NCBI GenBank assembly: GCA_008690995.1 | Contig: VRMN01000017.1 | Span: forward strand, 248,001-268,812 | Length of the DNA stretch: 20,812 nt | Direction of reading: 5' to 3' | Source: Porphyridium purpureum | Lineage: Eukaryota | Shown: positions 3,601 to 20,812 of the stretch, one piece after another | Layout: each line of letters starts with the position of its first letter | Position numbering within the stretch: the first letter of the stretch is position 1 | The notes under the pieces: generated by a model | Databases searched by the model: none | Told to the model about the DNA's origin: nothing | The model's input: the letters and a program-made list of their open reading frames with translations, nothing else | Made by a program: the position numbers and the translations under genes

Positions 3601-6600
3601 GAGAACATGCGCGGTGCTTTTGGCGCCTGGTTCACCAGCAAATTGACCGTGCGAACGCCGGCCTCGTTGCGAAGCTGGAGGTTACGCGCCTGCAACAAAC
3701 CCTCCCAACGCGAAATGAAGCCGCGCTCCTCTTCTGAGCCCTGAGGTAACGCACCAACCGGCCCGTTAAAGCTGATGATTAGCGTACCGATCGGCTCCTG
3801 CTCCTCCTCCTTCTTTTCCTTCGTCCACTCTGCCGCAAAGTCATCAATGATCGAAGGGAGCTTGTCTTGTGCGGTCGCCATCGAATCGCACGCCACCAGT
3901 CGCCCAAGCCGCATGGGCGAGCCCCGTACAATGTCTGCGTACGAAAACCGCCACGTTGCCACAATGCCGGAATCTGTGCGCTCGATGTTCAAAGCGTGGA
4001 TAACATGCGCACGGTAAACGCGGCGAATGTACACTTCAAGTGCAGCGCGGGCGACTTGCGCGTCCATGTCCAGGAAGAGTGAGCAAAGGAGGTCGACCGA
4101 CACACTCAGCGCACGCGACTTGGCAATCTCATCGAGTGCCGTAGAGTCGTTTCCCTTTGACATGATAAACTGGCGCACGTCTGCTAACCGCGAGTTGAAG
4201 TCTGGCGTGCGCAGTGCAGTCAGCAGCTGACCCGCTGCAACTACCACATCTCCATAGTTCTGGCTCTTCAGCTTCGTAAGAGCGGTCAAAGCGGCGTCGA
4301 GCTCCGGAGACAAAAGTGTGTCGTTCGGAAAGCGGTCCGGAAGCGTTCCTAGCTGGCGCAGAAGCGAGAGAACAAGCTCCGCGCGCCGCGGCAGTGTCAG
4401 GTGCGCTGCGATCATTTGGATTGCTGCCGCGTCGCTACCGGCGCTCTTCTTGATTGCCAAAATCGAATCATTGAGCGCGCGTCCGTCAAAATGTTCTTCG
4501 ACGCGAACAAATTCTTCGATGAGCGGCACGAGCCGAGAGATAATGTCGCATGCCGTGACTGGGTCTTCGATCGACTCTTCTGCTGAGCCAGCGTTTGAGT
4601 CCACCAACTGCTGCAACGCCGGGCCAACGCTTCCTTGGAAACCGTCTAGGATCAGCCGGAGCTTGTACGCCGCGATATCCACCGCATAGGTGCCAGCGCC
4701 TGTGCCCGCCGCGCCCATGCCAAGAGCAAGGACGTCACGGCCTTCGGGTTTGCGAATGTTAAGGACACCATCAAAGTCAGACACAGGCGACGCCTTGGAT
4801 GGGTCGTCGAGATCAAGCCGCGCAAGCAGGTCACCTGTCTTGATGATGGAGCCGGCGGCAAGCTCGTGGCGCAGCATGCCGGTCTCGCCTGCTGAGAGCT
4901 GCATAATCATCTTCATGGCCTCGAGCTCCACGTAAGGCTCGCCCTTCTTCACCGCATCACCATCCTGTTTGAGAAAGCGCACCACCTTGCCCGTTACGTC
5001 GCTGCGCAATTCAGATGGGTCAAAGATCGTCGGAATCATTACGGTGCTCCCATTGATAATCATGCGCAATCCGAGGGGCTCCTCTACGCCAGAAACTGAA
5101 TACACATTCTCACCCATGGTGCACAGTAGGCTCTGGTCCGGCTGCTCACGCACTTTGACGTCTAGCGACCACGTGCTCATCGAGCTTCCAGCTTTTGCCG
5201 CGGCCCCACTTGCAGAGCTTCCACTCGCGCTATCAAGCAAATTCAGGCGGAGCACGTCTGGCGCCAATCGGCCCACCTCAAAAGTGAAGCGGAGGCCCAT
5301 GTAGGTGATTTCGACGCTAAACTTGTTCAGAGCGTTCAACTCGGACACGAACGTGCTCTGACCACGCGCAAGCTGCTCAAGGCATGCGAGTTTGCCGCGT
5401 TTGATGGTGTCATGGGCGCGATACACAGCTGCAGCAAGAACGGCAGTGTCGCGATCCAGCTCAAATTTGACCGACTTTTCGCGGATCAGACGATCAAGCC
5501 ATGAGGTATCGATAGTATTCTGCTTGAATTCATCAGTCTCAAGCAGTTGCACCAAGTATTCGACCGGATTGCGAATCTCGCCGCGCGCTTCAAGCTCCTT
5601 GAGTGCCAGCACCAATGCCTTGCGCGCATCCTCACGGTTTGCGCCGCTGGCAAAAACATGCCCAAACTGCGAATCGGCAAACTCGTGAATCCCACCCTGC
5701 GCACCGACTGAAAAGTAGCCCCAGACGTCCGGACTGCTCTGAAATCGCACGCGCTCCACACGACCGCTCGTTGGCTTGAATCCTTCGTCCGGGTTTTCGG
5801 CGGTGATGCGAGCTGCGATGACGTGGCTGCGAAGCGGCTGGTACATTTCGGTCATAAAGTCGATCGGCGAGTCGCCGTATGCATCTGTGCCATCACGTCC
5901 GTACAGTCGTCGGATATCGGGCACGCGCGATAGTGCAATGCCCATCGCTACCTGCAGCTGCGTGGCGGGCATGTTCACGCGTGTGAGGCCCTCCGTCACT
6001 GGATGCTCGACCTGAAGCCGCGGGTTGAGCTCGAGGAAGAAAAACTTTTGCGTGTCCGCATTGTACAGGTACTCCACGGTTCCGGCTCCGCGGTAGCCGA
6101 TCGATTGCGTTAAGCGCTGCGCTGCGCGCTCCATTTCCCGGAAGACCGAAGGCTCCACGATAACGGGCGGTCCCTCTTCGAATATTTTTTGAAAGCGGCG
6201 CTGCGTGGAGCAGTCGCGCCCGTTCAGCGCTACCGCGTTGCCGTACTCATCTCCTACGATCTGGACCTCAATGTGTCTCGCGTTCTTGCACAACTGCATC
6301 ATGAAGATCGGACTCCCGGGTACTTCATTTACCACCTGTTCATAATTCGAGCGCAGCTCTGTTTCGTTCGCAGACATGCGAATGCCCTTGCCACCGCCGC
6401 CTTCGGACGCCTTTGTCATGATCGGGTAGCCGATGCGCTCGGCCACTGCGATCGCCTCGTCAACGTTGTGCACCATCGCTTGCTCAAATATCTCACGCGG
6501 GATCGTGCCGTCCTCTGACAGCTCTGCCGTCAGTCCATCGCCCGACCACGGGATGCTGGGCACGTTGGCCGTTTGTGCCAAAATGTTCGCGCCAATCTTG

Positions 6601-7163
6601 TCGCCCAGCACGGCCATGACGGGACCCGTCGGCCCGATGAACTGGATGCCCAGCTTGGCGAGTGAATTAGGCAATCGAGGGTTCTCAGATGCGTGGCCCC
6701 AGCCCGGCCACACTGCGTCGACGCCCTCGCGCTTCGCCATCGCACAGATCAACTCCACGTTGGCATAGTTGTTACGGTTTGGGCCGCCGGGTACCTCCAC
6801 AAAAGAATCTGCGAGGCGCACAAACTCGGCGTTGGCGTTGAGATCCTCTGGTGTGGCCATCGCAACAAATTCAATCGCTCGCTCCGAGCCTATTTCATAG
6901 TACGCCCACTTGCGCATGGACAGAATGGCCTTGGTGGCCGCCATGCCGTTGTTCGCGATCAGCACTTTCCGAATGACGCGCTTGCCGCCGCGAGCGTCCA
7001 CGTACTCCTGGAGCTGCTTCAGGTTTGTCTGATTCCGCGGCGACGCCGGCGGCGACGCTGATGCCGGTTTTTCCTCCACGCTAGCGCTCATGCGCAACAC
7101 CCCTGGCGCCGCGCCCCGCACGCCCGCCGGCTGATTGCCGCTGGTCCCTGCGCGCTTTCTCAT
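612..7163 (-). CDS. ACC1: Homomeric multidomain acetyl-CoA carboxylase (BC-BCCP-central-CT), plastid-type; true start probably further upstream (7306 or 7336-7342)
   Basis: Uninterrupted 2183-aa ORF. Biotin carboxylase motifs KVLIANNG, WPGWGHASENP, KASEGGGGKGIR, RDCSTQRRFQKIFEEGP and FLELNPRLQVEHPVTE; biotin attachment motif EAMKM (Lys codon 4911-4913); carboxyltransferase motifs ANDVTFQAGSFG, GVENLRGSGLIAGETS, AGQVWYPDSAFKTA and ANWRGFSGG. Confidence 0.97.
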   Translation of the reverse strand: MRKRAGTSGNQPAGVRGAAPGVLRMSASVEEKPASASPPASPRNQTNLKQLQEYVDARGGKRVIRKVLIANNGMAATKAILSMRKWAYYEIGSERAIEFVAMATPEDLNANAEFVRLADSFVEVPGGPNRNNYANVELICAMAKREGVDAVWPGWGHASENPRLPNSLAKLGIQFIGPTGPVMAVLGDKIGANILAQTANVPSIPWSGDGLTAELSEDGTIPREIFEQAMVHNVDEAIAVAERIGYPIMTKASEGGGGKGIRMSANETELRSNYEQVVNEVPGSPIFMMQLCKNARHIEVQIVGDEYGNAVALNGRDCSTQRRFQKIFEEGPPVIVEPSVFREMERAAQRLTQSIGYRGAGTVEYLYNADTQKFFFLELNPRLQVEHPVTEGLTRVNMPATQLQVAMGIALSRVPDIRRLYGRDGTDAYGDSPIDFMTEMYQPLRSHVIAARITAENPDEGFKPTSGRVERVRFQSSPDVWGYFSVGAQGGIHEFADSQFGHVFASGANREDARKALVLALKELEARGEIRNPVEYLVQLLETDEFKQNTIDTSWLDRLIREKSVKFELDRDTAVLAAAVYRAHDTIKRGKLACLEQLARGQSTFVSELNALNKFSVEITYMGLRFTFEVGRLAPDVLRLNLLDSASGSSASGAAAKAGSSMSTWSLDVKVREQPDQSLLCTMGENVYSVSGVEEPLGLRMIINGSTVMIPTIFDPSELRSDVTGKVVRFLKQDGDAVKKGEPYVELEAMKMIMQLSAGETGMLRHELAAGSIIKTGDLLARLDLDDPSKASPVSDFDGVLNIRKPEGRDVLALGMGAAGTGAGTYAVDIAAYKLRLILDGFQGSVGPALQQLVDSNAGSAEESIEDPVTACDIISRLVPLIEEFVRVEEHFDGRALNDSILAIKKSAGSDAAAIQMIAAHLTLPRRAELVLSLLRQLGTLPDRFPNDTLLSPELDAALTALTKLKSQNYGDVVVAAGQLLTALRTPDFNSRLADVRQFIMSKGNDSTALDEIAKSRALSVSVDLLCSLFLDMDAQVARAALEVYIRRVYRAHVIHALNIERTDSGIVATWRFSYADIVRGSPMRLGRLVACDSMATAQDKLPSIIDDFAAEWTKEKKEEEQEPIGTLIISFNGPVGALPQGSEEERGFISRWEGLLQARNLQLRNEAGVRTVNLLVNQAPKAPRMFSFNYCENYAEDALRRDMRTSFPYLLELSRLSENFELQRLPIYLRNAQLWLGTEKRDQEVALTRPRTQSLFLRGISHSDMSVPGVMEKVLLILMDQLDAGIVNPRVDPTATCNMFLNVLQPVQGAAYIEQTGGPTKKLPPAHTVRHLRADMEALMVKYAERLIRLRVENIELKIRVPFEADSTGNEVQQAVRLWASPTGGYAGAQSQRTFFKTDAFAEIQNPITGVTEQYVPYEEQQIAQGQQLNASASRPYYTKSGPEQLKRRAARRVGSTYAYDFMALFEIALVKQWSRARTRSTNPPVTPQFGSLMRTRELVLDKETQELSPVERAPGQNEIGMVAWLITLKTPEYPSGREIVVIANDVTFQAGSFGVAEDEFFFKASEYARVRSIPRIYLSSNSGARIGLVESLKPMFKVQFRDESNPTLGFEYLYLSEKDYNELPEGTVIAERRICAGSGEKGEEVRYVLKDIIGTAHGIGVENLRGSGLIAGETSRAYDESFTLSYVTGRSVGIGAYLVRLGQRTIQQTNGPIILTGFQALNKLLGRDVYSSLDQLGGPQIMVPNGVTHELVENDQEGVIAILDWLAYVPATARGSPPILAGPPADPIGRDVEFVPPKGGGATYDVRDMLRGSVQPDGKVLRGFFDAGSFKEYLAGWGRSVVVGRARLGGIPYGVIAVETRTFDRVIPADPANAASRETLEPQAGQVWYPDSAFKTAQAIEDFSGENLPLMIFANWRGFSGGTRDMFGEVLKFGAMIVDALRKYDMPVSIYLPPNAELRGGAWVVVDPTINEKMMEMYADTQSRGGILEPPGICEVKFRAPDQLKAMHRLDTELLSLDARLENATEEKDRAEIKAAISKRENLLLPIYLQIAHEFADLHDRSGRMLAKGVIRDVVEWKRSREYFFWRTKRRLRELELRKHVAKVNAALDWLAATEVMRALVGGDAVWLDDRAFLKWFDENSANLDALLAPVRLDAVRASISELLGGLPDADRAEVLKRLES

Positions 7164-7413
7164 CCGCCCGCTGGTCGGCGCGGTGAACGACGCGACCCGC
7201 TCCGCCGCCTTTCATCCATCGCGCGCGCTGCCTGGAGCGCGCCGCCGCCACGCAGCATATTGCCACAATACGCTTGCAAGGGCGGCTGGAACTGAAACGC
7301 CAGCATCGCCGCCGCACCACCCTCCCTCCTCCTCATCATCATCTTCTCTCCATCCCCCCCTGTCGGCGGCATCATGCACCGTGGCCCGCACCCCACCTCC
7401 CACCACACACGCT

Positions 7414-7954: not shown

Positions 7955-8188
7955 CTTTGCGCTGCGGTGTTTCCCTCATCTTTCTTCTTCTTGCTTGCTT
8001 GACTAACCACCTATTGTGGTAGTGTTTCTATCATTCGGTCATTCCCCAACTCTACCCTCGATCACGCTTTGGAAAAGCGACTGTGGCAGCGCGACAGCCA
8101 AGACGCTGATCGGCGCCGCGAACATCGAGAAGGAAAAAAGAGGCGCTCGAAGCGCAACTGGTGAGCGCGACGCGCCCAGTGTTTGGTC

Positions 8189-11100
8189 ATGGAATATGAC
8201 ATGGATAGGGCTGCGGGTGCTAGTACCCCAGCAACACCGTCGCCGGCACGCGGTGGTGCAAACGCCTCGGCAACCCGCCTTGGCGCGGCAGCAAGTGCGC
8301 GGCGCGAGTCCGCGCGCGAGGAAACGAAACGAGAGATGGCGGCGATGCTGAATGCGGCATACGCCCAAATGCATCGCCAACTCTCGGAGGAATTCGGCGC
8401 CAAGATGGCGACCGAACTGAATACCCGGACGGCGATTGTTCAGAGTGAGCTCGCCGAGCTGCGGAGCGAGAACGTTCGTCTGAGGGCGCTTCGCGATGGA
8501 TCCGGTGGAAGTGGCGCTTTGCCGAGCTGCATGCGCCCTGCGGCCATGCTGTACTATGGCGGCGAGCGATCCACTGCGGCCATTATGACCTGGACGGCAG
8601 CAGCGCGTTCGCGGGTGTACAACCCGGCGCGCTCGGATTGGCGGTCGCAGGGCCGTCTTTGGACGGAAACCGAGGAAGAGGAAGCAGTGTCGACGCTTTC
8701 GACTCACCTCTTCGGATTGGCGCAACTCTGGTACCAGGCATTACAACCTGATCAGAGACCCACCTCGGTAGAAGAGTTTCTGCTCGCGCTTCAGCGGCGC
8801 TTCGAGCCCAAAGAAACAGAAAATGACGTGCGGGATGAACTGCAAAAGATGAAGAAGGGTGCAATGAGTGTCCAAGATTTTGAAGCTGCATTTAGTGAAG
8901 TTTGTCTGCGTATACCAAATTTGGTAGACAAAGATAAACTTCACTATTTTACAGAATCTCTTGACACTTCTATTGCCACTCACGTAGCGCTTCACTTCCC
9001 TCCCACCTATGACGACGCTTTGCGTTTGGCTTTAGTTGCCGACAAAGTCATATTTAAGCGTGGTCGAGACCAGCAGCCCATCACAGCACGCACGTACCCG
9101 TCAGCCATGCAGCCTGCATACCACCCCCAGATGAACTATAACCAGCATGGTCCGGTGCCAATGGACTTGGGTACCGCCAGCGGCAGCAGCGCACGGGTGC
9201 ACGGACGAGGATACAACGGCTTCCAGCGGGATCGCTCGAACGAGTATCAACAGCAACAGCATGACCAATGGTCACCAGCTGGACCGCAGCGGAACCTGCG
9301 TGCGAATCATGCAGAGCGGTACGCGCAGAGCCGCGCGGACGGACGAGACGGCGGCTGGCGAGAGCCGAGCACGCATGGTTGGAACCGTGGTGGCGGCCAG
9401 AACGACGCGCGTGGGCGCGGACAGAAGCGTGGCGCACCGCAACGAGGCGGTGCCAGTAGACCACGACCGCGACAGACGCCGAAGTCGCAACAAGATGGCA
9501 AGAAGAGTAATCAGCGTGGGCGCTATTACTGCCATCGGTGCTCCGTGTGGGGGCCAGCGACGCACAACTGTGCAGACAGGCGCGATGATCGCGATGCCAA
9601 TCTCGGCGGAGCCGAGTTGATGACCGCCAGTGCGGGCAAAGGGTTGCTCAAGGTGAATGCTTGGGTGAACGGCCGGGCGATGAAAGCAGTCATCGATACC
9701 GGCGCAACGCACACCTTTCTGAGCGAGAGCGCATGCGCGATGGTGCGAGTGCGCACAAATAGCACCGCGAATGCCTTGACCATTCGATTGGCAGACGGCA
9801 CGCAGTGCATGTCTCGCGGGCGCGCGACAGTGAATCTGGCGGTGCTGGATTCAGCAGAGAAGCAGCAGGACGTGGTTGTGTACAATGGCCACAATGACCT
9901 CGTGATCGGTCTCGATTGGCTTCGAACCAACCGCTTCGAAATGATCATCGGCGGTCACAGTCTTGGCACAGCCGAGGCTGAGCATGTAGAGCAGGACCAT
10001 TGCGTTCTGCACATGCCGTCGCGCGACACGTGCGGAATATGCAGCGCGGCAAAGCTGCGGCGCGCGCGTGCTGTGAGGCGAGACGACTCGGTTGGCAAAG
10101 AGCGCGGACGAGCGCGCGAGTTCAACGACGTGGTGTCGATTGACATTGTGGATCCCGGACTGGCAGCCGTGGATGGCAGCAGGTGGCTGCTCACTCACCT
10201 CGACGAAGCCACTGGGTGGTTCTCAGCAATTGGGCTGGCGGACAAGTCCGCCGCTGAGTGCATTCGCGGGTTGACGGAGCTGCAGCGCGGACGTGGTGAT
10301 TGGCCACGAGTGTTGCGGTGTGACGAGGGCCGCGAGTTCATGGGCGAATTCGACGGATTCATCGCGGAAAAGGGCGTGAAGAAAGTCACTGGTGTACCTT
10401 ACCGGGCGAACACGCACGCGACGCATGAACGCAAGCATGCAGACTTGAACGGAGCAGTGCGAGCACTGCTGATGCAGTCTGGCTTGCCGACCGCGTGGTA
10501 TCCGTTCGCCGCCGCCTACTTTTGCCTGGCCAGAAACCTCGCCTGGCGCGGCGCAAAGCAGGAGCAGACCAGCTTCGAGCAACGGCTCGGTCTAACATGG
10601 CACAAGCCCATCCCTGCATTCGGGAGCGGCATTCTCATATACGATGAGAGCCGCGGCAAATTTGAGCCGAAAGGCTTGCCTGCAATCGTCGTTGGGTTCA
10701 CGGCACCGAGGCCGAATGACCCGCGGCAGCCCATAAACCTGCTCGCCCTGCCCATTGCCGACTTGCGGCCATCTGCGATCAGGAAGGTCGGCGAATGGAA
10801 GCCACTTCCCGACAAGTGGCCATTGCGACGTTTGGCACTGCGGCCTCCGGATGAGGCCATTACGACGGGTGATCAATGGTCGCGAGCACGCGACAATGCA
10901 CCGGACCGTGCATTCTGCACACAGTGCAAGAAAATAGTCGGTGGGAGCACCGAATGCGAGAAATGCATTTTGGGTCCGGCGCCCAGCCGACGTCACACTG
11001 GTGACGGCGCATGCAGGCAAATGCACTGCCAGTGCTACCGAGACGAGCACGGAAAGCTCGCGTCACGAGCACAGTATCGGCGCATTGAGCTGCCGTGGAG

Positions 11101-13096
11101 TCCGGCCGAGGACATTGCCATATCCGAAGGCATTGCCCGTTTTGGTGAGGACTGGCTTGCCATCGCGGGTAGGCCAGCATTCTTCATGCGCGGCCGCAAA
11201 CCAGCCGGCTTACGCGCGCGCGCAGCGGAACTGGGTGTGCTTCCAGTGCACGCAGCAGCAGCGAGCGACGCGACGCGGAACGACGCGACGCGAGCAGAGA
11301 GTAGCAGCGACGCAATGTATACAAGCGCGGCGACAGGGGGACCAGAGGACGAAGCGGCAGGTCTGGGGGTGGCAGAAGTTGTGGCCACAGCGGTGGCGAT
11401 GGCCACGCCCGCCGGCCGCCATGCATTAGCATCCGAGCTTCGTGCGCTCACCAGCACCGGCGCTCTGCCTTTCCGCCGCACGATGGACAAGGCAGTGGCG
11501 GCGCGCGTTCCGAACGCGCAATTCGTTAAGTTGAAGCTCCTCTTCAACAAGAAGAATTCAGAAATGCCTTCGTCGTTCCACAAGACGAAGTGCCGCATCG
11601 TCGCGCAAGGATGCGTCGTGCTGGACGCCGATGGGCGTCGCGCGCGCGAAGAACCGTACCCTTTTGATCGCCCACCAGGTTTGCTGGCGATCCGCGCCTC
11701 GATGAGCATGGCGCTCATGCTCCATGGACCATCCGCCGACGGCGCCTTCTTCGACGTAACGTGTGCCTACCCCAGTGCACCATTGGGCGGCCGTCCGACA
11801 TTCGGATATCTGCGCGACCTGGTCCCGGTCGTGAAGGGTCTAGTCAGCGAAGCCGACTACAGAAAGATGGCCGCATGCAGCGAGCCTGTCGTGGAGCTAC
11901 CGCAGGCTCTGTACGGAATGAAAAGGAGCGGCAGCGACTTCAGCCACGACGCTCGCGAGCGTGTCCGGCGGCTTGGATGGCAAGAATCCAACGCGGACAA
12001 GAACCAGTACTGGCGCCGCGACGCGAACGGCAGCATGCTCACGCTGAGCATGTACGTCGACGATGGCGCACTCTTCGGCAATGCGGATGCGGTACGAGTG
12101 GCGGTCAAACAACTGAAGACCGTCTTCAGAATCGACCAGAAGGTCGAATACATTGCAGACTCGGCGCGTACGCGCCCTATCAAGTATCTCGGCATGCACA
12201 TCTATCGCGACGGCGGCCGATGGATACTGGATTCGGGGGTGTACGCCACCCATGTGGCGAACGGCCACACCGCGGACAACTTGCGCGTGCGCAGCACGCC
12301 ACTCAGCGAGCGGGTCGACGACAATGGACCCGGCGGGCGCGCGTGCCCGACAAACAAGCGAACAGTGATTGGCCAACTGCTGTGGCTCAGCCGAACCACG
12401 CGAGCAGACATCGCTTATGCCACGGCGCATGTGGCGCGTTATGTCGACCGGTGGGGGCCAAGCGCGGATCGCGCGCTCGACGAGATCGTCGGGTATCTGA
12501 AGAAGCATGCGGACGTCTGTCTGCAATACGACATACCCGCGACAGGAAGTCGCGACGTTCGGTTGCACGCGTGGGCTGATGCCGACTTCTCGGCACCGTC
12601 ATCCACGAGCGGCGCCGTGCTCTTCATATCGAATGGCAGATGCCGACACCTTGTAGACTGGACCAGTCGGCGCCAGCGGCGCGTCAGCACCTCGACGACC
12701 GAGGCTGAGTTGGTAGCGCTGCACGACGCAGCGCAAGGCAGCGTGTTCCCAGTGGCGACACTGGCGGAAGAACTTTTGAGGCGCTGGCCTCCGATCGTTG
12801 TGCGGTGCGACAACGAGTCGACTTTGCGCGCGGTGGAGCGCGGCCACAGTGACCGGCTACTGCATGCGCCAAAGATGCAGCGCATCTCTCTGAGATGGTT
12901 GCACGAGATAGCAGCGGACGGACTCGTCAAGTTCGTCTATGTCGCTACGCGCGACAACATCGCTGACGGCTTGACGAAGCCGATTGCCACCGACGTGTTT
13001 CGCGGCCATGCATGTTACCAATGCTGTGCCTTTATTCTCTCTCTCTTCTTCTTCTTTCTTACCTCTTCTGTCTCCGAGCAAGACCTGACCGGCTAG
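8189..13096 (+). CDS. Gag-Pol polyprotein of element A: Gag, Zn-knuckle-like motif, aspartic protease, integrase, Cys-rich module, Myb-like domain, RT, RNase H; last 27 aa are read-through into LTR B
   Basis: First ATG at 8189. Protease DTGATH (9695); integrase HCVLHMP..CGIC (9998) and D10142, D10322, E10427; copia-type RT KCRIVAQG, FDVTCAY, QALYGMKRSG, YVDD (12053), YLGM; copia-type RNase H WADADF, WTSRRQ..VSTSTTEAE, CDNES, NIADGLTKP. Confidence 0.92.
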   Translation: MEYDMDRAAGASTPATPSPARGGANASATRLGAAASARRESAREETKREMAAMLNAAYAQMHRQLSEEFGAKMATELNTRTAIVQSELAELRSENVRLRALRDGSGGSGALPSCMRPAAMLYYGGERSTAAIMTWTAAARSRVYNPARSDWRSQGRLWTETEEEEAVSTLSTHLFGLAQLWYQALQPDQRPTSVEEFLLALQRRFEPKETENDVRDELQKMKKGAMSVQDFEAAFSEVCLRIPNLVDKDKLHYFTESLDTSIATHVALHFPPTYDDALRLALVADKVIFKRGRDQQPITARTYPSAMQPAYHPQMNYNQHGPVPMDLGTASGSSARVHGRGYNGFQRDRSNEYQQQQHDQWSPAGPQRNLRANHAERYAQSRADGRDGGWREPSTHGWNRGGGQNDARGRGQKRGAPQRGGASRPRPRQTPKSQQDGKKSNQRGRYYCHRCSVWGPATHNCADRRDDRDANLGGAELMTASAGKGLLKVNAWVNGRAMKAVIDTGATHTFLSESACAMVRVRTNSTANALTIRLADGTQCMSRGRATVNLAVLDSAEKQQDVVVYNGHNDLVIGLDWLRTNRFEMIIGGHSLGTAEAEHVEQDHCVLHMPSRDTCGICSAAKLRRARAVRRDDSVGKERGRAREFNDVVSIDIVDPGLAAVDGSRWLLTHLDEATGWFSAIGLADKSAAECIRGLTELQRGRGDWPRVLRCDEGREFMGEFDGFIAEKGVKKVTGVPYRANTHATHERKHADLNGAVRALLMQSGLPTAWYPFAAAYFCLARNLAWRGAKQEQTSFEQRLGLTWHKPIPAFGSGILIYDESRGKFEPKGLPAIVVGFTAPRPNDPRQPINLLALPIADLRPSAIRKVGEWKPLPDKWPLRRLALRPPDEAITTGDQWSRARDNAPDRAFCTQCKKIVGGSTECEKCILGPAPSRRHTGDGACRQMHCQCYRDEHGKLASRAQYRRIELPWSPAEDIAISEGIARFGEDWLAIAGRPAFFMRGRKPAGLRARAAELGVLPVHAAAASDATRNDATRAESSSDAMYTSAATGGPEDEAAGLGVAEVVATAVAMATPAGRHALASELRALTSTGALPFRRTMDKAVAARVPNAQFVKLKLLFNKKNSEMPSSFHKTKCRIVAQGCVVLDADGRRAREEPYPFDRPPGLLAIRASMSMALMLHGPSADGAFFDVTCAYPSAPLGGRPTFGYLRDLVPVVKGLVSEADYRKMAACSEPVVELPQALYGMKRSGSDFSHDARERVRRLGWQESNADKNQYWRRDANGSMLTLSMYVDDGALFGNADAVRVAVKQLKTVFRIDQKVEYIADSARTRPIKYLGMHIYRDGGRWILDSGVYATHVANGHTADNLRVRSTPLSERVDDNGPGGRACPTNKRTVIGQLLWLSRTTRADIAYATAHVARYVDRWGPSADRALDEIVGYLKKHADVCLQYDIPATGSRDVRLHAWADADFSAPSSTSGAVLFISNGRCRHLVDWTSRRQRRVSTSTTEAELVALHDAAQGSVFPVATLAEELLRRWPPIVVRCDNESTLRAVERGHSDRLLHAPKMQRISLRWLHEIAADGLVKFVYVATRDNIADGLTKPIATDVFRGHACYQCCAFILSLFFFFLTSSVSEQDLTG

Positions 13097-13316
13097 CCCG
13101 GGCAGGCGCGTCGCCTTTTTATACCCTTACTTCCGCCAGGGACAGCAAGGCGCCACGAGAAATGACAATGCAAATCATTGGCATTTCTGCGCGCGTCTAG
13201 AAGGTTCTGGAACCTCTAGAAGCTTCTAGAAACGGTTAAACGGTCTACCGGTTTAGCGGCTTACCGGTTTCGGACTAACCGAACCGTTCTAGGTGACTGG
13301 GGTCGAACGGATAACA
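13013..13316 (-). repeat. 3' LTR of element B (304 bp)
   Basis: Termini TGTTACC... and ...GGATAACA, directly adjacent PPT, minus-strand TATAAAA at 13117-13123, and the same layout as the LTRs of element C. Partner LTR not in the window. Confidence 0.82.
13199..13232. promoter_or_regulatory. Two perfect tripartite heat-shock elements (nGAAnnTTCnnGAAn) in U3 of LTR B
   Basis: aGAAggTTCtgGAAc at 13199-13213 and aGAAgcTTCtaGAAa at 13218-13232, about 75-110 bp upstream of the LTR TATA box. Confidence 0.75.
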
Positions 13317-13902: not shown

Positions 13903-14182
13903 TGCTATGCTGTACACCCCATGCACTGTACACATGTAGCACCTGTACTCCATAGTACAGTCCACCCTCCAAAACCCCATCCAAACCCACCACTGAGTTA
14001 GATCCAGGGCTTTGCGGCAGTATATAATCCACGCCGCCGTGCGGCCCGAGCTAAACAAAAAGTAAAGGAGGTATCGAAGTGCGAGGAGAGGTTGGTGTGC
14101 CGTTGGTGTCGGGGTTCGATCCGGGCGGGTGCCTGTAGGTGAGAGAGAGGGGTTGTAGTGGCTGCGGGTGTAGTACACAGCA
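13903..14182 (+). repeat. Putative 5' LTR of element D (280 bp)
   Basis: TG...CA with an imperfect 17-nt terminal inverted repeat (TGCTATGCTGTACACCC versus the reverse complement of the end, TGCTGTGTACTACACCC, 13/17). TATATAA at 14021-14027. Begins where the integrase-like sequence of B stops. Confidence 0.7.
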
Positions 14183-14323
14183 TAATTCTAGAATTAGCGT
14201 TGCCCCATTCTTGAGTAATTTCTTGTGGGAGCGCGCGGGCCGGTCTGGTTGGTGGTCGGGTGGCCCGGAACCAGGGCGACGTGGGGGAGAGGTGCCAGGT
14301 CGGGTGGCTCTGGTGTCTCGTTT

Positions 14324-14615
14324 TGTCACAAACGGAGCTTCTTTTCTTTACTTCTTCTTCTCTCCTCCTCTACCTCCTCTCTTCTTTCTAGCCTTTTTTC
14401 TTCGTTCGGCTGCCGCTCGCTCTGTTTTATACCCGCCTTCCGGCGCCGCAACGGCTTGCCCGGCGGGTTCAGCCCTCGGAATAACCCAATCCCGCGGCCC
14501 TCAACATAACTCAGCTGTACCACACGGTACACCCACAGCTGTACTTTCAGTACACTTAGGGACTGTACCTCTGCGTACTCGCTGTACTGAGACCTGCATC
14601 AGGTCGCTCGCGACA
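14324..14615 (-). repeat. 3' LTR of element C (292 bp)
   Basis: TGTC...GACA; direct repeat of 20260-20551 with a single difference (T14387 vs C20323). Confidence 0.97.
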
Positions 14616-14630
14616 TCCCACACTTCCCGC
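14616..14630 (-). other. Polypurine tract of element C (imperfect)
   Basis: Minus strand GCGGGAAGTGTGGGA directly precedes the 3' LTR. Confidence 0.7.
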
Positions 14631-15136
14631 TTATCCACAGCGACCATTGCGATAGCGTGTTCTAAGCCCACGCGCCGCATGCATAGCAGCCGTTCCCGTG
14701 CCGCTCAACAGGTTCAAGCACAATGAGCTGAGATCGAGCGGACGAAGTACAGTGTAAGCTGACAGGGTACAGTGCCAGCAACAGGGCCAAAAAAATAAGG
14801 TGGCCGGTGCCGCTCACAAGTGACGCCCACTGACAAGACCCCGTACAGGCTGCCATCCCCCTCCCCCGCTAACCTTAAAGGAAAGGTGCGCTGTTACGGC
14901 TCTGCCCAATGTCACCCCGGGGAATTACCCTAGCCACGGATCCCCAGCATTTCACAGGGGCAGTTTTCTCTAATCAGGGAGTGTCTAAGATCCTCTTCAA
15001 TTCTCGTTTGCCAAACTGCCGAAATTTAGAGTATATACACCCCCAAATATGGACTCAGGTACAGTATTACTGTACTTCACTGTACACAGACTGTACTTCA
15101 TTTTGTTCTTTATCATTCGTTCTACCGTCTTGCTGC

Positions 15137-15277
15137 GGGCACGGCTCCTTCTTTACCGTCCAGCCATGGACACAGCTCCTTCTTTAATGTCCAGCAACGG
15201 ACACAGCTCCTTCTTTATCGTCCAGCAACGGACCCAGCTCCTTCTTTACCGTCCAGCCACGGACACTCCATCTTTAT
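15137..15277. repeat. 31-bp tandem repeat, about 4.5 copies, in the 3' UTR of element C
   Basis: Units start at 15137, 15168, 15199, 15230 and 15261 (partial); approximate consensus GGACACAGCTCCTTCTTTACCGTCCAGCMAC. Confidence 0.92.
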
Positions 15278-15325
15278 TCGAACATTTTTTTTTTGAGAGC
15301 AGCGACGGCCGATAGCCACCCAGCG

Positions 15326-18300
15326 TCAAACACCTTCTGCCATGTCTCGGTACGCGGCTACCAGCATGGGCGGGAGCGTCTTCTCAGCCTCCCATGTGTC
15401 GCCTCGCTTCCCCATACCCCGCCATCTCACCTTGTACTCGCGGCCTCCACCCGCAGCCCGATCTTCCACAATTGCCTCCACCACCCAACTTGCATCTCCT
15501 CCAACGAACACGTTCGTGCCGGCCATGTCTACCACGTCCGGGTCTGCCTTGTGCAAGCGGTTCACATGCACGAGCTGGCCATGGAGCTCTGCGTCATCTC
15601 GGCCGTTTGCGCTGACCACGACTGCGTGAACCCCGTTCCGCTTTGTGATGCGGAAAGGTCCGAGCCACGGCTTTGTCAGCTTGCGACCCTGCCTCGTACT
15701 TGGGCACCACACGTATACGATGTCGCCTTCGGCAAACGTTTCCTTGTTCCGATGAATGTTTCTGTCATAGTACCTTGCAAACCTCTCGGCGTTCTCCGAC
15801 ATCTTATTCCCGGCGAGCCGATAGGCGCGCGCCAGCTGTGCGGAGATATCTTGCGGTTGCTGGCCCCCTTCAACCGCTCGCGGTCCGGCCATGCTTGCCC
15901 AGTCCTTGGCTGGCGACCCAAACATCATTTCGTACGGCGAGAAGCCGGTGGCTGCGTGGCGCGACGTGTTGTACGCGTAGGTTACAACGGACAGCCACCT
16001 ATCCCAGTCGCGCGAGCTTGCACTGACGTACGCCGACAGCATCTTGCACAGGGTCGCATTGAAGCGCTCCACCCTTCCGTTCGTCTGCGGGTGGTAGGCT
16101 GTCGTCATGAGCCTCCGGATTCCGAGTCTGGCGCAAAGCGACGTGATCACCTCACCGACAAAGTTTGAGCCCCGGTCGGACAAGATGGACTCCGGCGGGC
16201 CAAAGACAGTCAACCACGTCTGCAGGAAACTCCGCGCCACGGTCTCTGCCTTCTCGTCCGGGAGCGCCACGGCAACCGCCCATCGCGTCCAAGCATCCAT
16301 CATGACGAGCACCTTGATATTTCCCGTTCGCGTCTCCGGACTGATGGTGAGGATGTCCATGCCTACAATTTCAAAGCGTCTGGACGCCGAGTACTGCACC
16401 ATCGCCGCGTTCCGGCGGGGTGGTGGTGCCTTGCGCGCTATGCACTCGTGGCAGCACCGAACGAACTTCCGAACGTCTTCTGTCCACCCGGGCCACCACC
16501 ACTGCGCGTCGGCTATCCTCGCCGCCGTCCTCGCCGTCCCCATGTGAGCCGACAGCGGGGCTCCGTGATAGACATTCAGAACTGCCGACACAAGGGCGTC
16601 AGGGACCACCCGCCTGGGCATGTCTTTCAGCAACGCAAACACAATCCCGTCTTCGTCCACGATATACTCAGGGAAGGAGTACTTTGACGCGGGGCCTGAT
16701 AGGTTCTTGAGCTCAGCGCAGATCTGCTCGTCCTCTGCGTACGCTGCTCTGAGCTCGTCGTCCGTGGGCACAGCGTATAGCGCCCCACTGTCTTGCGTGT
16801 CCCGTACCTCCCGGACCTCTTCTTCCGTGCCAGTGTCCAGAGGAGTACGCGATAGCGCATCGGCCACGATATTCGCTGCGCCTGGCTTGTGCTTCACGTC
16901 AAACTCGAAATCTTGCACGCGCATGATCCACCTTGCCGTCCGACCCCGTGGCTCTTTCTGGCGAAGCAGCCACAGCAGCGCCGAGTGATCCGTCACGAGA
17001 ATGAACTTCTTGCCGAACAGATAGTGCCTGAACTTTTCCATGGATAGTATGGCACCCAAGCACTCTTGCTCCGTGACGCTGTAGTTCAGCTCTGCGCCTC
17101 GGAATGCCCTTGAGTAAAAGGCCACCGGGCGCCGCTGGTCCCCTTGAAGCAAGACCGCGCCAATGCCCACCTGGCTCGCGTCGACTTCAAGAACCATCTC
17201 GGCGGCCGGATTGAATGCAACCAGGACTGCGCTACCGTCGTCCATCGGATCACCTAGCGCATGGCGTAGGTCTATGAACGCGGCGCGCTGGTCGTCCCCG
17301 AATCTGCTCGCCCACTCTGCGCCACCAGCCGTCTTCCGGTGGAAGCCACCTTTCTTGTCCGTCAATCCGAGCCCAGTCAGCGCCCGCCTCAGCGGGAGGG
17401 CGCGCTCCTCGAAGTTCGGTATGAAGTTACGAAACCAGCCGACCAGTCCCAGGAACCGCTGCAGGTCCTTCGCTTCTTCTGGCTCTGGCCACTCCAGGAT
17501 TGCCCGCGTCTTATCTACCCCAGGCCGCAAACCTTGCGGGCCAATGCGATGGCCCAGAAACTGTACTTCTGCCAGAGCAATCTTGCACTTGCGGGCCGAC
17601 AGTGTAAGCCCCGACGCCGCGAACCTTCGCAAGATCTGACGAAGTCCTTCCACATGTTCCTCGAAGGTCTCATGTCCCACTGTCAGATCGTCAATGTAGA
17701 TCTGCGCGTGTGCATGGCGCATAGGGCCCAAAATCCGGTTGTTGAGTCGCTGGAAAGTTGGCGGACTATTGCAGCAGCCCTGCGGCAGACGCGTGTATTC
17801 AAATAGCCCCTCACGTGTGATCATGGCAGTCAAATGCATGCTTTCTGGCGCAAGGGGCACCTGGAAAAACCCGTCCTTGAGATCGAGAGCGCTCTTCCAT
17901 CGGCGCCTCGAAAGCCAGTCGAGCATCTCCCCAACGTCTGGGATTGGGTACCTGTCCTTGATTGTGATTGCATTGAGCGGGCGAAAGTCGGTAGTCATCC
18001 GATACGATCCATCTGGTTTCCGGATCAGTACGTTGGCTGCTGCACACTCCGACGTGCTCGGCTGCAGCACTCCCTTAGCGACAAGGGCTTCGACCAGGCT
18101 GCGCTCGGCCTCGTTCTCGGCCTCTGAGCGCCTGCGCACTTTGGCCACCAGAGGGCGCTGGCCCGGTTCGACAGTGATGGTGTGTTCCACCAGGTCCGTC
18201 AATCCCATGGACGGCCTGAACAGCACCCACGCCTCAGCTAGGACGTCGCCGACTCGTTTGCGCTGCTCGGGCTCGAGATGCCCAAGCTCGATGGCCGCGG

Positions 18301-18934
18301 CGTTGCGCAGGGCTTCCTCTTTCTCGGCCGCGTGCTTCTGCTCCAGCTGGGCGATTCGACGATCAATCTCGCCCGGTTCTTCAAGATGACCGATGTGTTC
18401 TGGGCCCGGCAGACCACTCACTTGCTCGAACGGTAGAGAACCTCCACGCTTGAAGAACACAGCTTGACCTGGCAGCACGGCCGCGACTTCTCGAACCTGG
18501 AAGTCCCAGCCGATCAAGAGATCTGTCTTGAGGTGTTCCGCCACTCGGACCGTCTCGCACGGAAAAACGAAAGACCCGAGATGCAGATCCAGAAACCCAA
18601 CGCTGACTCTGCCCAAGGAGGCGCCGTCCGGCCCTCGCGCTCCCCAACTTGACGGCTGCGTTTTCAAGCCGAGCCGGTCAGCCACGCTCGGGCTCACCCA
18701 TGTTGAGTTTGCGCCCGTGTCCAGAACTGCCAGTGCAACCACTGCCTGGCCACATGCGGTGAGCTTCACCCGCAACGTCGGACTGTTGTCCGCACGCACG
18801 GCTAGCTCCGAGTCGCCGTCTTGTTCCTTGGCGTACGCCGCGCCTTGCAACTCTGCCTCACCTGAGGCATCGCCCGGCTCCCACCATTCCATGCAGGGGG
18901 CAGCTACTGCTTGCTGCCCCACTGCCCGTTTTTT
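15326..18934 (-). CDS. pol: Pol of element C (protease, RT, RNase H, integrase, chromodomain), expressed by -1 frameshift from gag
   Basis: Part of ORF 15326-19078. Motifs LDTGAN; DFRPLN, LDLKDGFFQ, PQG, YIDD, FLGH; DASQVGIGAVL, TDH, ADALSR; H..H..C..C, SDRGSNF, HPQTNGRVER, WLGPF; chromodomain WVVEAIVEDR...EYKVRWRG...DTWEAEKTL (about 15350-15487). Confidence 0.95.
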   Translation of the reverse strand, partial: KKRAVGQQAVAAPCMEWWEPGDASGEAELQGAAYAKEQDGDSELAVRADNSPTLRVKLTACGQAVVALAVLDTGANSTWVSPSVADRLGLKTQPSSWGARGPDGASLGRVSVGFLDLHLGSFVFPCETVRVAEHLKTDLLIGWDFQVREVAAVLPGQAVFFKRGGSLPFEQVSGLPGPEHIGHLEEPGEIDRRIAQLEQKHAAEKEEALRNAAAIELGHLEPEQRKRVGDVLAEAWVLFRPSMGLTDLVEHTITVEPGQRPLVAKVRRRSEAENEAERSLVEALVAKGVLQPSTSECAAANVLIRKPDGSYRMTTDFRPLNAITIKDRYPIPDVGEMLDWLSRRRWKSALDLKDGFFQVPLAPESMHLTAMITREGLFEYTRLPQGCCNSPPTFQRLNNRILGPMRHAHAQIYIDDLTVGHETFEEHVEGLRQILRRFAASGLTLSARKCKIALAEVQFLGHRIGPQGLRPGVDKTRAILEWPEPEEAKDLQRFLGLVGWFRNFIPNFEERALPLRRALTGLGLTDKKGGFHRKTAGGAEWASRFGDDQRAAFIDLRHALGDPMDDGSAVLVAFNPAAEMVLEVDASQVGIGAVLLQGDQRRPVAFYSRAFRGAELNYSVTEQECLGAILSMEKFRHYLFGKKFILVTDHSALLWLLRQKEPRGRTARWIMRVQDFEFDVKHKPGAANIVADALSRTPLDTGTEEEVREVRDTQDSGALYAVPTDDELRAAYAEDEQICAELKNLSGPASKYSFPEYIVDEDGIVFALLKDMPRRVVPDALVSAVLNVYHGAPLSAHMGTARTAARIADAQWWWPGWTEDVRKFVRCCHECIARKAPPPRRNAAMVQYSASRRFEIVGMDILTISPETRTGNIKVLVMMDAWTRWAVAVALPDEKAETVARSFLQTWLTVFGPPESILSDRGSNFVGEVITSLCARLGIRRLMTTAYHPQTNGRVERFNATLCKMLSAYVSASSRDWDRWLSVVTYAYNTSRHAATGFSPYEMMFGSPAKDWASMAGPRAVEGGQQPQDISAQLARAYRLAGNKMSENAERFARYYDRNIHRNKETFAEGDIVYVWCPSTRQGRKLTKPWLGPFRITKRNGVHAVVVSANGRDDAELHGQLVHVNRLHKADPDVVDMAGTNVFVGGDASWVVEAIVEDRAAGGGREYKVRWRGMGKRGDTWEAEKTLPPMLVAAYRDMAEGV
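18897..18934 (-). promoter_or_regulatory. Programmed -1 ribosomal frameshift signal
   Basis: Slippery heptamer A AAA AAC (18934-18928) in the gag frame, a 7-nt spacer, then an 8-bp stem GGGGCAGC/GCTGCCCC. Pol lies in the -1 frame. Confidence 0.85.
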
Positions 18935-20202
18935 GGTCCGTGGCTCAAGCCACCGTCCGAATACGGCGCGCGTGGTGCTCCACCTTGGCCCGCGGGGCGA
19001 TGCACTCCCCCATCGGCCCTTGGCCATCCATTGCGGCAATCCCTCTTCAAGTGTCCAAGTTCGCCGCACTGCCAGCACTGCGGCTGTCCGGGCAGAGCAG
19101 TCGGAAGGGCTTGGCGCTTGGCCTGTGGCCCAAAGCTCTCAACCTGGTATACATCCTCTGCGTACAGGCCGTAGTCACGACCGCGCTTCTGGATCGTCGT
19201 GCCCGGGACCTCGCCTATGCGGCCCACTCTCTCGCGGCCAAGCGGGCGTTGCTGGCCAAACGGAGGAAGCGAGCGACTCGGTAGACCCTTCAAACCATCT
19301 TCACCGACGTGGTCTACCAGAGCTGAGCGCAGCTTGGTGAACGAGACGCTCACGCCGATCATGCGGACCGTGTTCTTCAAGAACGCGGAGTCCATGGCTT
19401 CGATCAACACGTCCTTCTTGTCCTCGTCGTCCATCTTGAGCCCGTCAGCCTTGGTCTCCAGGTCGTTCAGAAAGACACTCAAGCTGGCTTTCCCCGGTTG
19501 GAACTTCATGCGGCGGAGCTCGGCTTTCAAAGCCTGGCGGTGCTCGACATTGAAAAACATGGACTCCAGTGCCTTCCACACACGGTTCGCTGCGCCGGGC
19601 CCTGCCGCATCGACATCTTTGATCACGGCTTGGTACCTTGACACCGCGGGCCCACCAAAGCAAGCGCTGATGTGCTCCGCGACATTGTCCCTTGCGAGGC
19701 CAAGTGTGTCCGCGTGCGACTCCCAGCAGGTCCGCGACGCGAAGAAATGAGCGTCACCTGGGGCCTTGATAAGAACTTGAGCACTGCGGACCGCCTCGCG
19801 AAAGGTTGCTGCGAGCTTCAACTGCTCCTCCCAGAACGACCGATCCGTGGTACGGCCCGAGGTCTGCGCCGAGTTGCGGCTGTGCGCCTGGGCCTCCAGT
19901 TCAGCAACGCGAGCGCGAAGGGCCATCACTTCGGCTCCGCCCGGTGCAGCTAGGTCTCCAACCGGGACAACGGACTCTGCGTCGGCTGCGGCTTCCAGGT
20001 GACCTGGCGTCCCCTGCTCATTGTCGACAGCTTCACCCTGGTGCTCCACGACAGGCCCGTCTTCTGGCGCTGGGCCCCCGGCACGAGCGGCCCCTGCTTC
20101 GATGATCGCGGATCCGCTGCGTGGCTCCCCAAGTCCTGCCACAACTGCTGCCTCGCGAGGCCCACCTGCCTCTCCAACTCCTGCCCCACGCCCACGCGCC
20201 AT
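18904..20202 (-). CDS. gag: Gag of element C
   Basis: First ATG at 20202, 58 nt from the 5' LTR. Coiled coil LRARVAELEAQ, capsid-like helical region, and canonical Zn knuckle CWQCGELGHLKRDC. Confidence 0.92.
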   Translation of the reverse strand: MARGRGAGVGEAGGPREAAVVAGLGEPRSGSAIIEAGAARAGGPAPEDGPVVEHQGEAVDNEQGTPGHLEAAADAESVVPVGDLAAPGGAEVMALRARVAELEAQAHSRNSAQTSGRTTDRSFWEEQLKLAATFREAVRSAQVLIKAPGDAHFFASRTCWESHADTLGLARDNVAEHISACFGGPAVSRYQAVIKDVDAAGPGAANRVWKALESMFFNVEHRQALKAELRRMKFQPGKASLSVFLNDLETKADGLKMDDEDKKDVLIEAMDSAFLKNTVRMIGVSVSFTKLRSALVDHVGEDGLKGLPSRSLPPFGQQRPLGRERVGRIGEVPGTTIQKRGRDYGLYAEDVYQVESFGPQAKRQALPTALPGQPQCWQCGELGHLKRDCRNGWPRADGGVHRPAGQGGAPRAPYSDGGLSHGPKNGQWGSKQ

Positions 20203-20259
20203 CCTATCCCACTCCCAACCCCACACTTCCTCGCTCCCACACGACCAATTTGCAAATTA

Positions 20260-20551
20260 TGTCACAAACGGAGCTTCTTTTCTTTACTTCTTCTTCTCTC
20301 CTCCTCTACCTCCTCTCTTCTTCCTAGCCTTTTTTCTTCGTTCGGCTGCCGCTCGCTCTGTTTTATACCCGCCTTCCGGCGCCGCAACGGCTTGCCCGGC
20401 GGGTTCAGCCCTCGGAATAACCCAATCCCGCGGCCCTCAACATAACTCAGCTGTACCACACGGTACACCCACAGCTGTACTTTCAGTACACTTAGGGACT
20501 GTACCTCTGCGTACTCGCTGTACTGAGACCTGCATCAGGTCGCTCGCGACA
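20260..20551 (-). repeat. 5' LTR of element C (292 bp)
   Basis: Direct repeat of 14324-14615; minus-strand TATAAAA at 20361-20367. Confidence 0.97.
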
Positions 20552-20716
20552 GTTGAAGTCGGGTGGCTTTGAAAAGATAGTTCTGTTTGGTTTTTTGAAC
20601 TTGTGTGGGAAGCCGGGTGGCTTCAGCACACGCATTGCACACTTTTGCGTTTGATTTCTAGGGACTGACTGATTATCTGATTTATGTCCGGACGCCTGTC
20701 GGATATCTTGGGGGAA

Positions 20717-20812
20717 ATGGCCGGGCGTCCAACTGTAGCGAGCGTCACGGCTGATGTGGCGGCACTCCAGGGACGTGTAGAGCTGATCGCATCCGGCCAG
20801 GAGCAGCTGCGC
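20717..20812 (+). CDS. Probable N-terminus of the gag of element D (runs off the window)
   Basis: MAGRPTVASVTADVAALQGRVELIASGQEQLR, open to the window end, coiled-coil-like, located after the D leader. Confidence 0.5.
   Translation, partial: MAGRPTVASVTADVAALQGRVELIASGQEQLR

Follow-up and report, generated by a model that had tools for sequence, protein, structure and literature searches.

The window analysed here, a stretch of 20,812 nucleotides from the red alga Porphyridium purpureum (GenBank assembly GCA_008690995.1, contig VRMN01000017.1, positions 248,001 to 268,812 of the forward strand), carries on its minus strand a frame (612-7211) that we take, from its motifs, to be acetyl-CoA carboxylase-like, and four nested LTR elements, designated A, B, D and C. 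B is inserted where A's RNase H region ends, D sits in the integrase region of B, and C sits in the leader of D. ARAGORN detected 0 tRNA genes in the window, and Rfam returned only two sub-threshold matches at chance level. The two outermost elements are represented by:

8165-13096, plus strand: long frame of element A, with gag, protease, integrase and copia-type reverse transcriptase (RT)
13013..13316, minus strand: 3' LTR of element B (gypsy; the insertion host of D), 304 bp

Element A shows the domain order of copia elements and an RT assigned (weakly) to RVT_2, and its gag and protease score best with Ty3/gypsy-type Pfam families; it is possibly a chimeric or a divergent copia element. 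A similar red-algal case is known from Porphyra. Near the start of the A frame, a 27-nt stretch (8205-8231) is similar to the final 27 nt of LTR D, with a local score of 32 that 0 of 200 shuffles matched in a comparison made after the fact. For element B, one contig of run X9 (X numbers denote public sequencing runs) shows the 5' LTR followed by T and TGGTATCA, a TGG-type primer binding site (PBS) that is similar to the initiator-Met site. B is thus an internal control with a tRNA-type site. The U3 of LTR B additionally contains, at 13196-13233, a pair of perfect heat-shock elements of three units each, starting at 13200 and 13219, within an inverted repeat that includes a 16-nt palindrome, and judging from these motifs B is likely a heat-inducible retrotransposon.

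Element D, at which the site of main interest lies, comprises the following parts within the window:

13903..14182, plus strand: 5' LTR of D, 280 bp, TG...CA; both ends from contigs of public runs, polypurine tract (PPT) at other copies
14183..14196, plus strand: palindrome of D, perfect over 14 nt, in the PBS position at zero offset; from the sequence and read contigs
14197..14323, plus strand: first part of the D leader, interrupted by C; empty site joining 14323 to GAAGTC in X5, X1 and X2
20555..20812, plus strand: remainder of the D leader, then codons 1 to 43 of a putative gag, with its ATG at 20684; D continues beyond the window

Directly 5' of the palindrome stands TACACAGCA, the CA end of the LTR, and the 14 nucleotides that follow without offset, TAATTCTAGAATTA, are their own reverse complement. 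The perfect 14-bp palindrome immediately behind the CA end that a preliminary description of the locus had pointed out is thus borne out, and it is unchanged in the covering contigs of runs X5, X2 and X1. Its meaning depends on where the LTR ends, and the check through other copies that had been proposed confirms 13903-14182 from public-run contigs. On the right side, two contigs of run X10 continue behind 14182 into unlike flanks, two of the listed X2 contigs stop at 14182, and another X2 contig begins at 14153 and crosses the D palindrome with 0 differences, a start that gives just the overlap of 30 nt to be expected with 31-mers if the contigs branch at 14182. On the left side, unlike flanks precede 13903 in X1 and X4, the empty site in B (13902 joined to GAAACC) is present in all four runs, and in three of the four (X5, X1 and X2) the LTR starts at the same letters behind a polypurine tract. 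As the LTR ends at 14182, the palindrome lies outside it, in the PBS slot; the contrary scenario of a boundary elsewhere with a normal PBS adjoining does not apply, the first TGG being found only at +43 from the LTR end.

LTR and PPT are what identifies D as an LTR element, the window covering it only to gag codon 43. The 43-aa gag start gave no match in one homology search and four matches to multi-stretch repetitive proteins in another, and compared with the gag of C it reached an E value of 1.8. In a family that is sister to D and occurs in X5 and X2, of which only the 3' arm of the site is visible, the site ends in AATCA instead of AATTA, which represents either a compensated change or a break in the pairing.

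The element inserted into the D leader reads on the minus strand:

14324..14615, minus strand: 3' LTR of C, 292 bp
14616..14628, minus strand: polypurine-rich tract of C
15326..19138, minus strand: pol frame of C with protease, RT (YIDD), RNase H, integrase and chromodomain; catalytic motifs present, stop-free
18904..20202, minus strand: gag of C with zinc knuckle, overlapping pol in another frame
20246..20259, minus strand: PBS-position sequence of C, TAATTTGCAAATTG, with six Watson-Crick pairs and a terminal G-U
20260..20551, minus strand: 5' LTR of C

By its LTRs, PPT and pol order (PR-RT-RH-IN), C is a Ty3/gypsy element with chromodomain; residues 300-800 of its pol are 100% identical to a protein named Porphyridium purpureum Ty3-type Gag-Pol, the catalytic motifs of its RNase H are intact, and its two LTRs differ at one position in 292 bp. 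An AAAAAAC heptamer at 18928-18934 in the gag/pol overlap is, by its sequence, a likely -1 frameshift site. The target-site duplication is probably GTTT (4 bp; 14320-14323 and 20552-20555), with the right copy in the window one T short compared to the empty site in reads, possibly by a homopolymer assembly slip. The 3' untranslated region of C furthermore holds about five tandem 31-nt units (15127-15281).

The boundary of C is set by its two LTRs within the window, and the letters of its site recur unchanged where X4 and X9 show loose ends; a loose end of X1 at 14324 was left out because it mixes two contigs (agreement 0.7). The site TAATTTGCAAATTG consists of a palindrome of 12 nt with a T-G pair at its ends, in RNA a G-U wobble. 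Of the palindromic site originally described as common to C and D, the zero offset therefore holds for both elements, but the C site is not a perfect 14-mer. The first TGG in the C leader stands at +12 from the LTR end; it was considered as a PBS and rejected, as a primer at this position would lengthen the LTR end by 12 bases.

The LTRs of C and D had been judged not to be alignable, and indeed their alignment score of 19 was equalled in 83 of 200 shuffles. Both share a density of GTAC motifs in the first third of the LTR (seven in C and four in D, the latter all within the first 56 nt; none in B), which is a weak hint at kinship or shared regulation. GTAC is the core of sites for SBP-domain factors, for example, in algal copper-response elements. 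The motif is dense in the U3 parts of D (13903-13960) and C (20450-20525) and in the 3' untranslated region of C (14750-15100), with 10-24 per kb in these parts versus 3-4 per kb in coding DNA.

Palindromes of at least 14 nt occur seven times in the window against 2.1 expected and are thus by themselves not rare here, so that the claim rests on position. Among the 2894 CA sites on both strands of the window, a palindrome with all seven pairs follows directly in three cases, D included, and one with the inner six pairs in four cases, C and D included.

Relatives were sought with a profile of eight pol proteins against metagenome contigs, which yielded 26 loci. Eight of these fall into one clade together with C and further P. 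purpureum proteins, supported at 99 in both trees (a quick IQ-TREE run with 56 rows and FastTree with 82 rows, midpoint-rooted; loci with fewer than 200 or 250 RT residues, including L015 and L016, were excluded). Ten metagenome loci lie in or near the clade: six start inside pol, three show the site, and one (L018, in the clade of C) shows no such site in the 7 kb upstream of its pol, a region in which no LTR was identified. The three informative loci are L002 and L007, both within the RT clade of C (support 99), and L016, which is related by DNA similarity. L002 reads CA directly followed by TAAGAAATTTCTTA, with seven of seven pairs, about 200 nt before a gag-like start. As no second LTR is present in the contigs of L002, L007 and L016, the LTR end of L002 is inferred from its CA end; read in reverse complement, the relatives' CA end is identical to the 7 nt with which LTR C begins. 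L007, a close copy of L002 with its pol match split over several frames, retains five of seven pairs, L016 six of seven, and each departure from pairing is private to one copy. In L002 (436-456), L007 and L016, a GC-rich hairpin with differing loops stands directly behind the palindrome, and U5, immediately ahead of the palindrome, likewise ends in a hairpin.

Over D, C, L002, L007 and L016, 32 of 35 cells are paired, all five sites start with TA and four with TAA. Four of the seven pairs are changed on both sides across the three families. The covariation score is 0.686 compared to 0.03-0.42 for slid registers (maximum 0.417); it was reached in 0 of 500 shuffles, and four two-sided pairs were reached in 97 of 500. 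These figures stand for three families rather than five independent cases, with the structure derived from the same sequences. The centres, CTAG in D, TGCA in C and AATT in L002, are self-complementary in all three families, for which the probability would be one in 16 each if unconstrained. Together, the two-sided changes in three families support the earlier proposal that self-complementarity and not primary sequence is under selection.

Further searches delimit the lineage. Two scans of viral contigs confirmed no relatives (0/62 and 0/21 candidates), nor did a first scan of genome contigs (0/46). A second genome-contig scan returned 78 loci with LTR-element sequence from assemblies labelled as prokaryotes (L027-L104), none of which, where enough RT was available for the tree, fell into the clade of C. 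They represent eukaryote-type LTR retrotransposons, several of them complete, and likely reflect host contamination of these assemblies. The 78 loci served as controls. Of 104 loci fetched in all, 24 show paired repeats on either side of pol, and a CA end is present in 20; many of the controls are close relatives. TGG stands within 2 nt of the LTR end in 15 of the 20, four have neither TGG nor palindrome, and one (L004, with paired LTRs and outside the clade of C) has a 20-nt palindrome across its 5' LTR end (116-135). Given 15 controls with TGG and a single one with a palindrome, palindromes are not general where gypsy LTRs end, and at least two separate lineages of gypsy elements have them. 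D, C and L002 lack a tRNA-type TGG at 0-3 nt behind the LTR; no TGG is found within 11 nt, and the first ones follow at +43, +12 and +42, respectively. Summed up, the palindrome in the PBS slot is a real, lineage-level feature of these elements, seen in three families, among them L002 with its putative LTR end and D, which is known here without pol.

Predicted homodimers of the sites reach -13.6 (D), -12.1 (C) and -13.0 kcal/mol (L002), isolated hairpins 0, 0 and -1.1 kcal/mol, respectively, and cross-family dimers only -0.4 to -2.1 kcal/mol. The C-D dimer, at -1.9 kcal/mol, agrees with the suggestion that different centres would keep the families from cross-pairing. In modelled leaders, the dimer lies below two monomers by 17.0 (D) and 14.5 kcal/mol (C); a favourable dimer is expected for any palindrome, so that energies of this kind fit dimerisation alone as well as they fit priming. 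In folds of short windows of D and C, the duplex runs 2-4 pairs past the bulged final A of the LTR. The self-complementary centres in three of three families in turn argue that an intermolecular duplex is favoured over a hairpin.

From these observations we propose, as an evenly poised reading, that the palindrome may be a tRNA-free priming site at which two genomic RNAs pair and one of them is cut to become the primer. Two packaged element RNAs would form a 14-bp duplex at the palindrome. A cut in one strand at the palindrome's 3' edge, probably made by the RNase H of the element itself, would then provide a 3' end that primes minus-strand DNA on the other RNA, beginning with the first base of the LTR end. 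In the general replication scheme of LTR elements, the 3' end of the primer lies at the LTR edge and the cDNA begins at the LTR end. Since the cDNA must begin there, the zero offset in D and C fits the position of a primer. The plus strand would then copy the primer, and because of this a site that is its own primer would be stable only as a palindrome: only a palindrome would be inherited unchanged, and mutations in one arm would be lost or mirrored into the other. The model additionally needs a second cut or a stop signal, as plus-strand synthesis would otherwise run into the LTR of the partner; nothing in the data indicates such a signal at 14 nt. The cleavage step is borrowed from Tf1, in which RNase H cutting of an RNA duplex to yield the primer has precedent (PMC7175516), and Ty1 and Ty3 RNAs are described as being packaged as dimers (PMC4974528).

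The main rivals to duplex priming are dimerisation alone and fold-back priming. The palindrome might only be a dimerisation or packaging signal, with priming achieved otherwise, for example, by a host small RNA pairing nearby. Self-complementary centres and homodimer energies would fit this equally well, and the PAL sequences of Ty1 have been proposed to mediate dimers (PMC4974528). Dimerisation alone, however, leaves these elements with no primer site, as the 14 nt behind the LTR differ between the families and no TGG is near. A dimer signal, moreover, need not sit at zero offset, and the retroviral one comes besides a PBS (PMC5445492). We thus consider this explanation rather unlikely.

Fold-back priming in cis, in which a 5-bp hairpin would form, be cut behind and have its 3' end extended into its own U5, appears to us a little less probable still. 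Short windows of D and C do give a hairpin with 2-3 further pairs and the last A of the LTR bulged, and the hairpin of L002 has the -1.1 kcal/mol given above. The isolated D and C hairpins, in contrast, have no predicted stability, the loop of a hairpin need not be self-complementary and yet is so in all three families, and a cut, as we infer, would part the template from the PBS that belongs to it.

A fragment of a tRNA (half-tRNA) as the primer, with the palindrome as a by-product of a symmetric anticodon arm, is improbable, even though the centre of C contains TTGCAAA, which we liken to an anticodon loop. With U33 and a purine at 37 placed by hand, no register gave a pairing anticodon stem in C or D. 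Half-tRNA priming does exist in copia groups (PMC6317226; FunCo1 in PMC5445492), and the survey reports such sites only from copia elements (PMC6317226). Three sequences would also need three tRNAs, each with a 14-nt symmetric stretch.

Very improbable is a DNA-level element unrelated to priming, such as a two-unit heat-shock element, for which TTCtaGAA in D, GAAatTTC in L002 and the real three-unit elements in the adjoining LTR B could be quoted. Heat-shock elements consist of three or more alternating nGAAn units in a promoter. The preliminary description had itself raised the possibility of a mere two-unit element inside the LTR; the site of D, however, is not part of the LTR, follows the TATA-like box at a distance of about 160 nt (the box stands about 160 nt before the LTR end) and has two units only, C lacks such a motif, and the arms beyond the motif also pair.

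Self-priming of the Tf1 type from the 5' end of the transcript is more doubtful again. C does have a chromodomain, as do many self-priming chromoviruses (PMC6317226), but its clade stands apart from the chromovirus-like rows in both trees. Within the upstream LTR, complements to the site reach at most 4 nt in D, 4 nt in C and 6 nt in L002, against the 11 nt given for Tf1 (PMC7175516). Chance, finally, is barely credible despite the palindrome-rich window, as only about 7 in 10,000 other CA sites have such a palindrome behind them, and two read-confirmed LTR ends both have one, with a third family in agreement.

The closest published case is the Conserved Hairpin Site of GalEa, a group of fungal copia elements, proposed in 2017 as a replacement of the PBS that no known model fits (PMC5445492, also for what follows on GalEa). 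There, a 9-nt CHSeq1 behind the LTR is palindromic together with the final A of the LTR, usually accompanied by a second complementary arm (CHSeq2) 12-41 nt downstream, and 85% of the families have one of two sequences. CHSeq2 is missing in some families (three of four among the rows listed). Both systems lack a tRNA PBS, have a palindrome directly after the 5' LTR and show variants between families. They differ in that GalEa elements are copia and C is gypsy, that CHSeq1 is 9 nt and includes the final A whereas the red-algal sites are 14 nt with this A unpaired, and that four inner pairs differ between the red-algal-type families, whereas GalEa has mostly two sequences. C and L002 show no second arm like CHSeq2, and for D such an arm is doubtful, with shares of shuffles at least as stable of 0.46, 0.98 and 0.14, respectively. 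Downstream of its palindrome, the control L004 has a 10-bp hairpin, an arrangement much like that of GalEa.

Other systems share single traits with the proposed model. Tf1/sushi elements are likewise tRNA-independent and use a primer from the element RNA that is freed by RNase H (PMC7175516, PMC4600332, PMC6317226), but Tf1 takes the first 11 nt of its transcript as the primer and has a non-palindromic PBS, whereas LTRs C and D are without such a complement. The retroviral dimer initiation site and Ty1 PAL are likewise short palindromes that pair genomic RNAs (PMC5445492, PMC4974528), but coexist with a tRNA PBS and lie away from the LTR edge. Among gypsy elements, Tcn2-5 of Cryptococcus, for which novel priming was proposed (PMC7175516), and SM-Tcn1 also belong to Ty3/gypsy and have neither tRNA nor Tf1-type sites (PMC7175516, PMC2864245); the Tcn2-5 proposal may anticipate a palindromic site in gypsy elements. 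Similar unexplained structures are mentioned for bivalve TRIMs (PMC6934838), and a plant survey distinguishes tRNA, half-tRNA and self-priming types, the string 'palindrom' being absent from its text (PMC6317226). In the literature searched, which was mostly open-access, we found no description of a palindromic PBS in gypsy or red-algal elements.

How reverse transcription starts without a tRNA site or a Tf1-type self-primer is a general puzzle, to which this locus adds a red-algal gypsy lineage with read-confirmed boundaries, an adjoining tRNA-type control and three variants of the site. Somewhat more tentatively than the priming role itself, we suggest a further mode of priming beside the tRNA and Tf1 types, in which the PBS of one RNA primes the other; it would have arisen repeatedly in gypsy and copia elements, couple dimerisation to initiation, maintain its own palindrome and isolate families from each other. 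With its open frames, LTRs one base apart and culturable host, C makes the model directly testable, and the model predicts that complementary mutants rescue each other in trans and that arm mutations are mirrored in the progeny. Annotation tools that demand a tRNA PBS would rate such elements as defective; if the model is true, C would instead be an intact, recently inserted system for palindrome-based priming.
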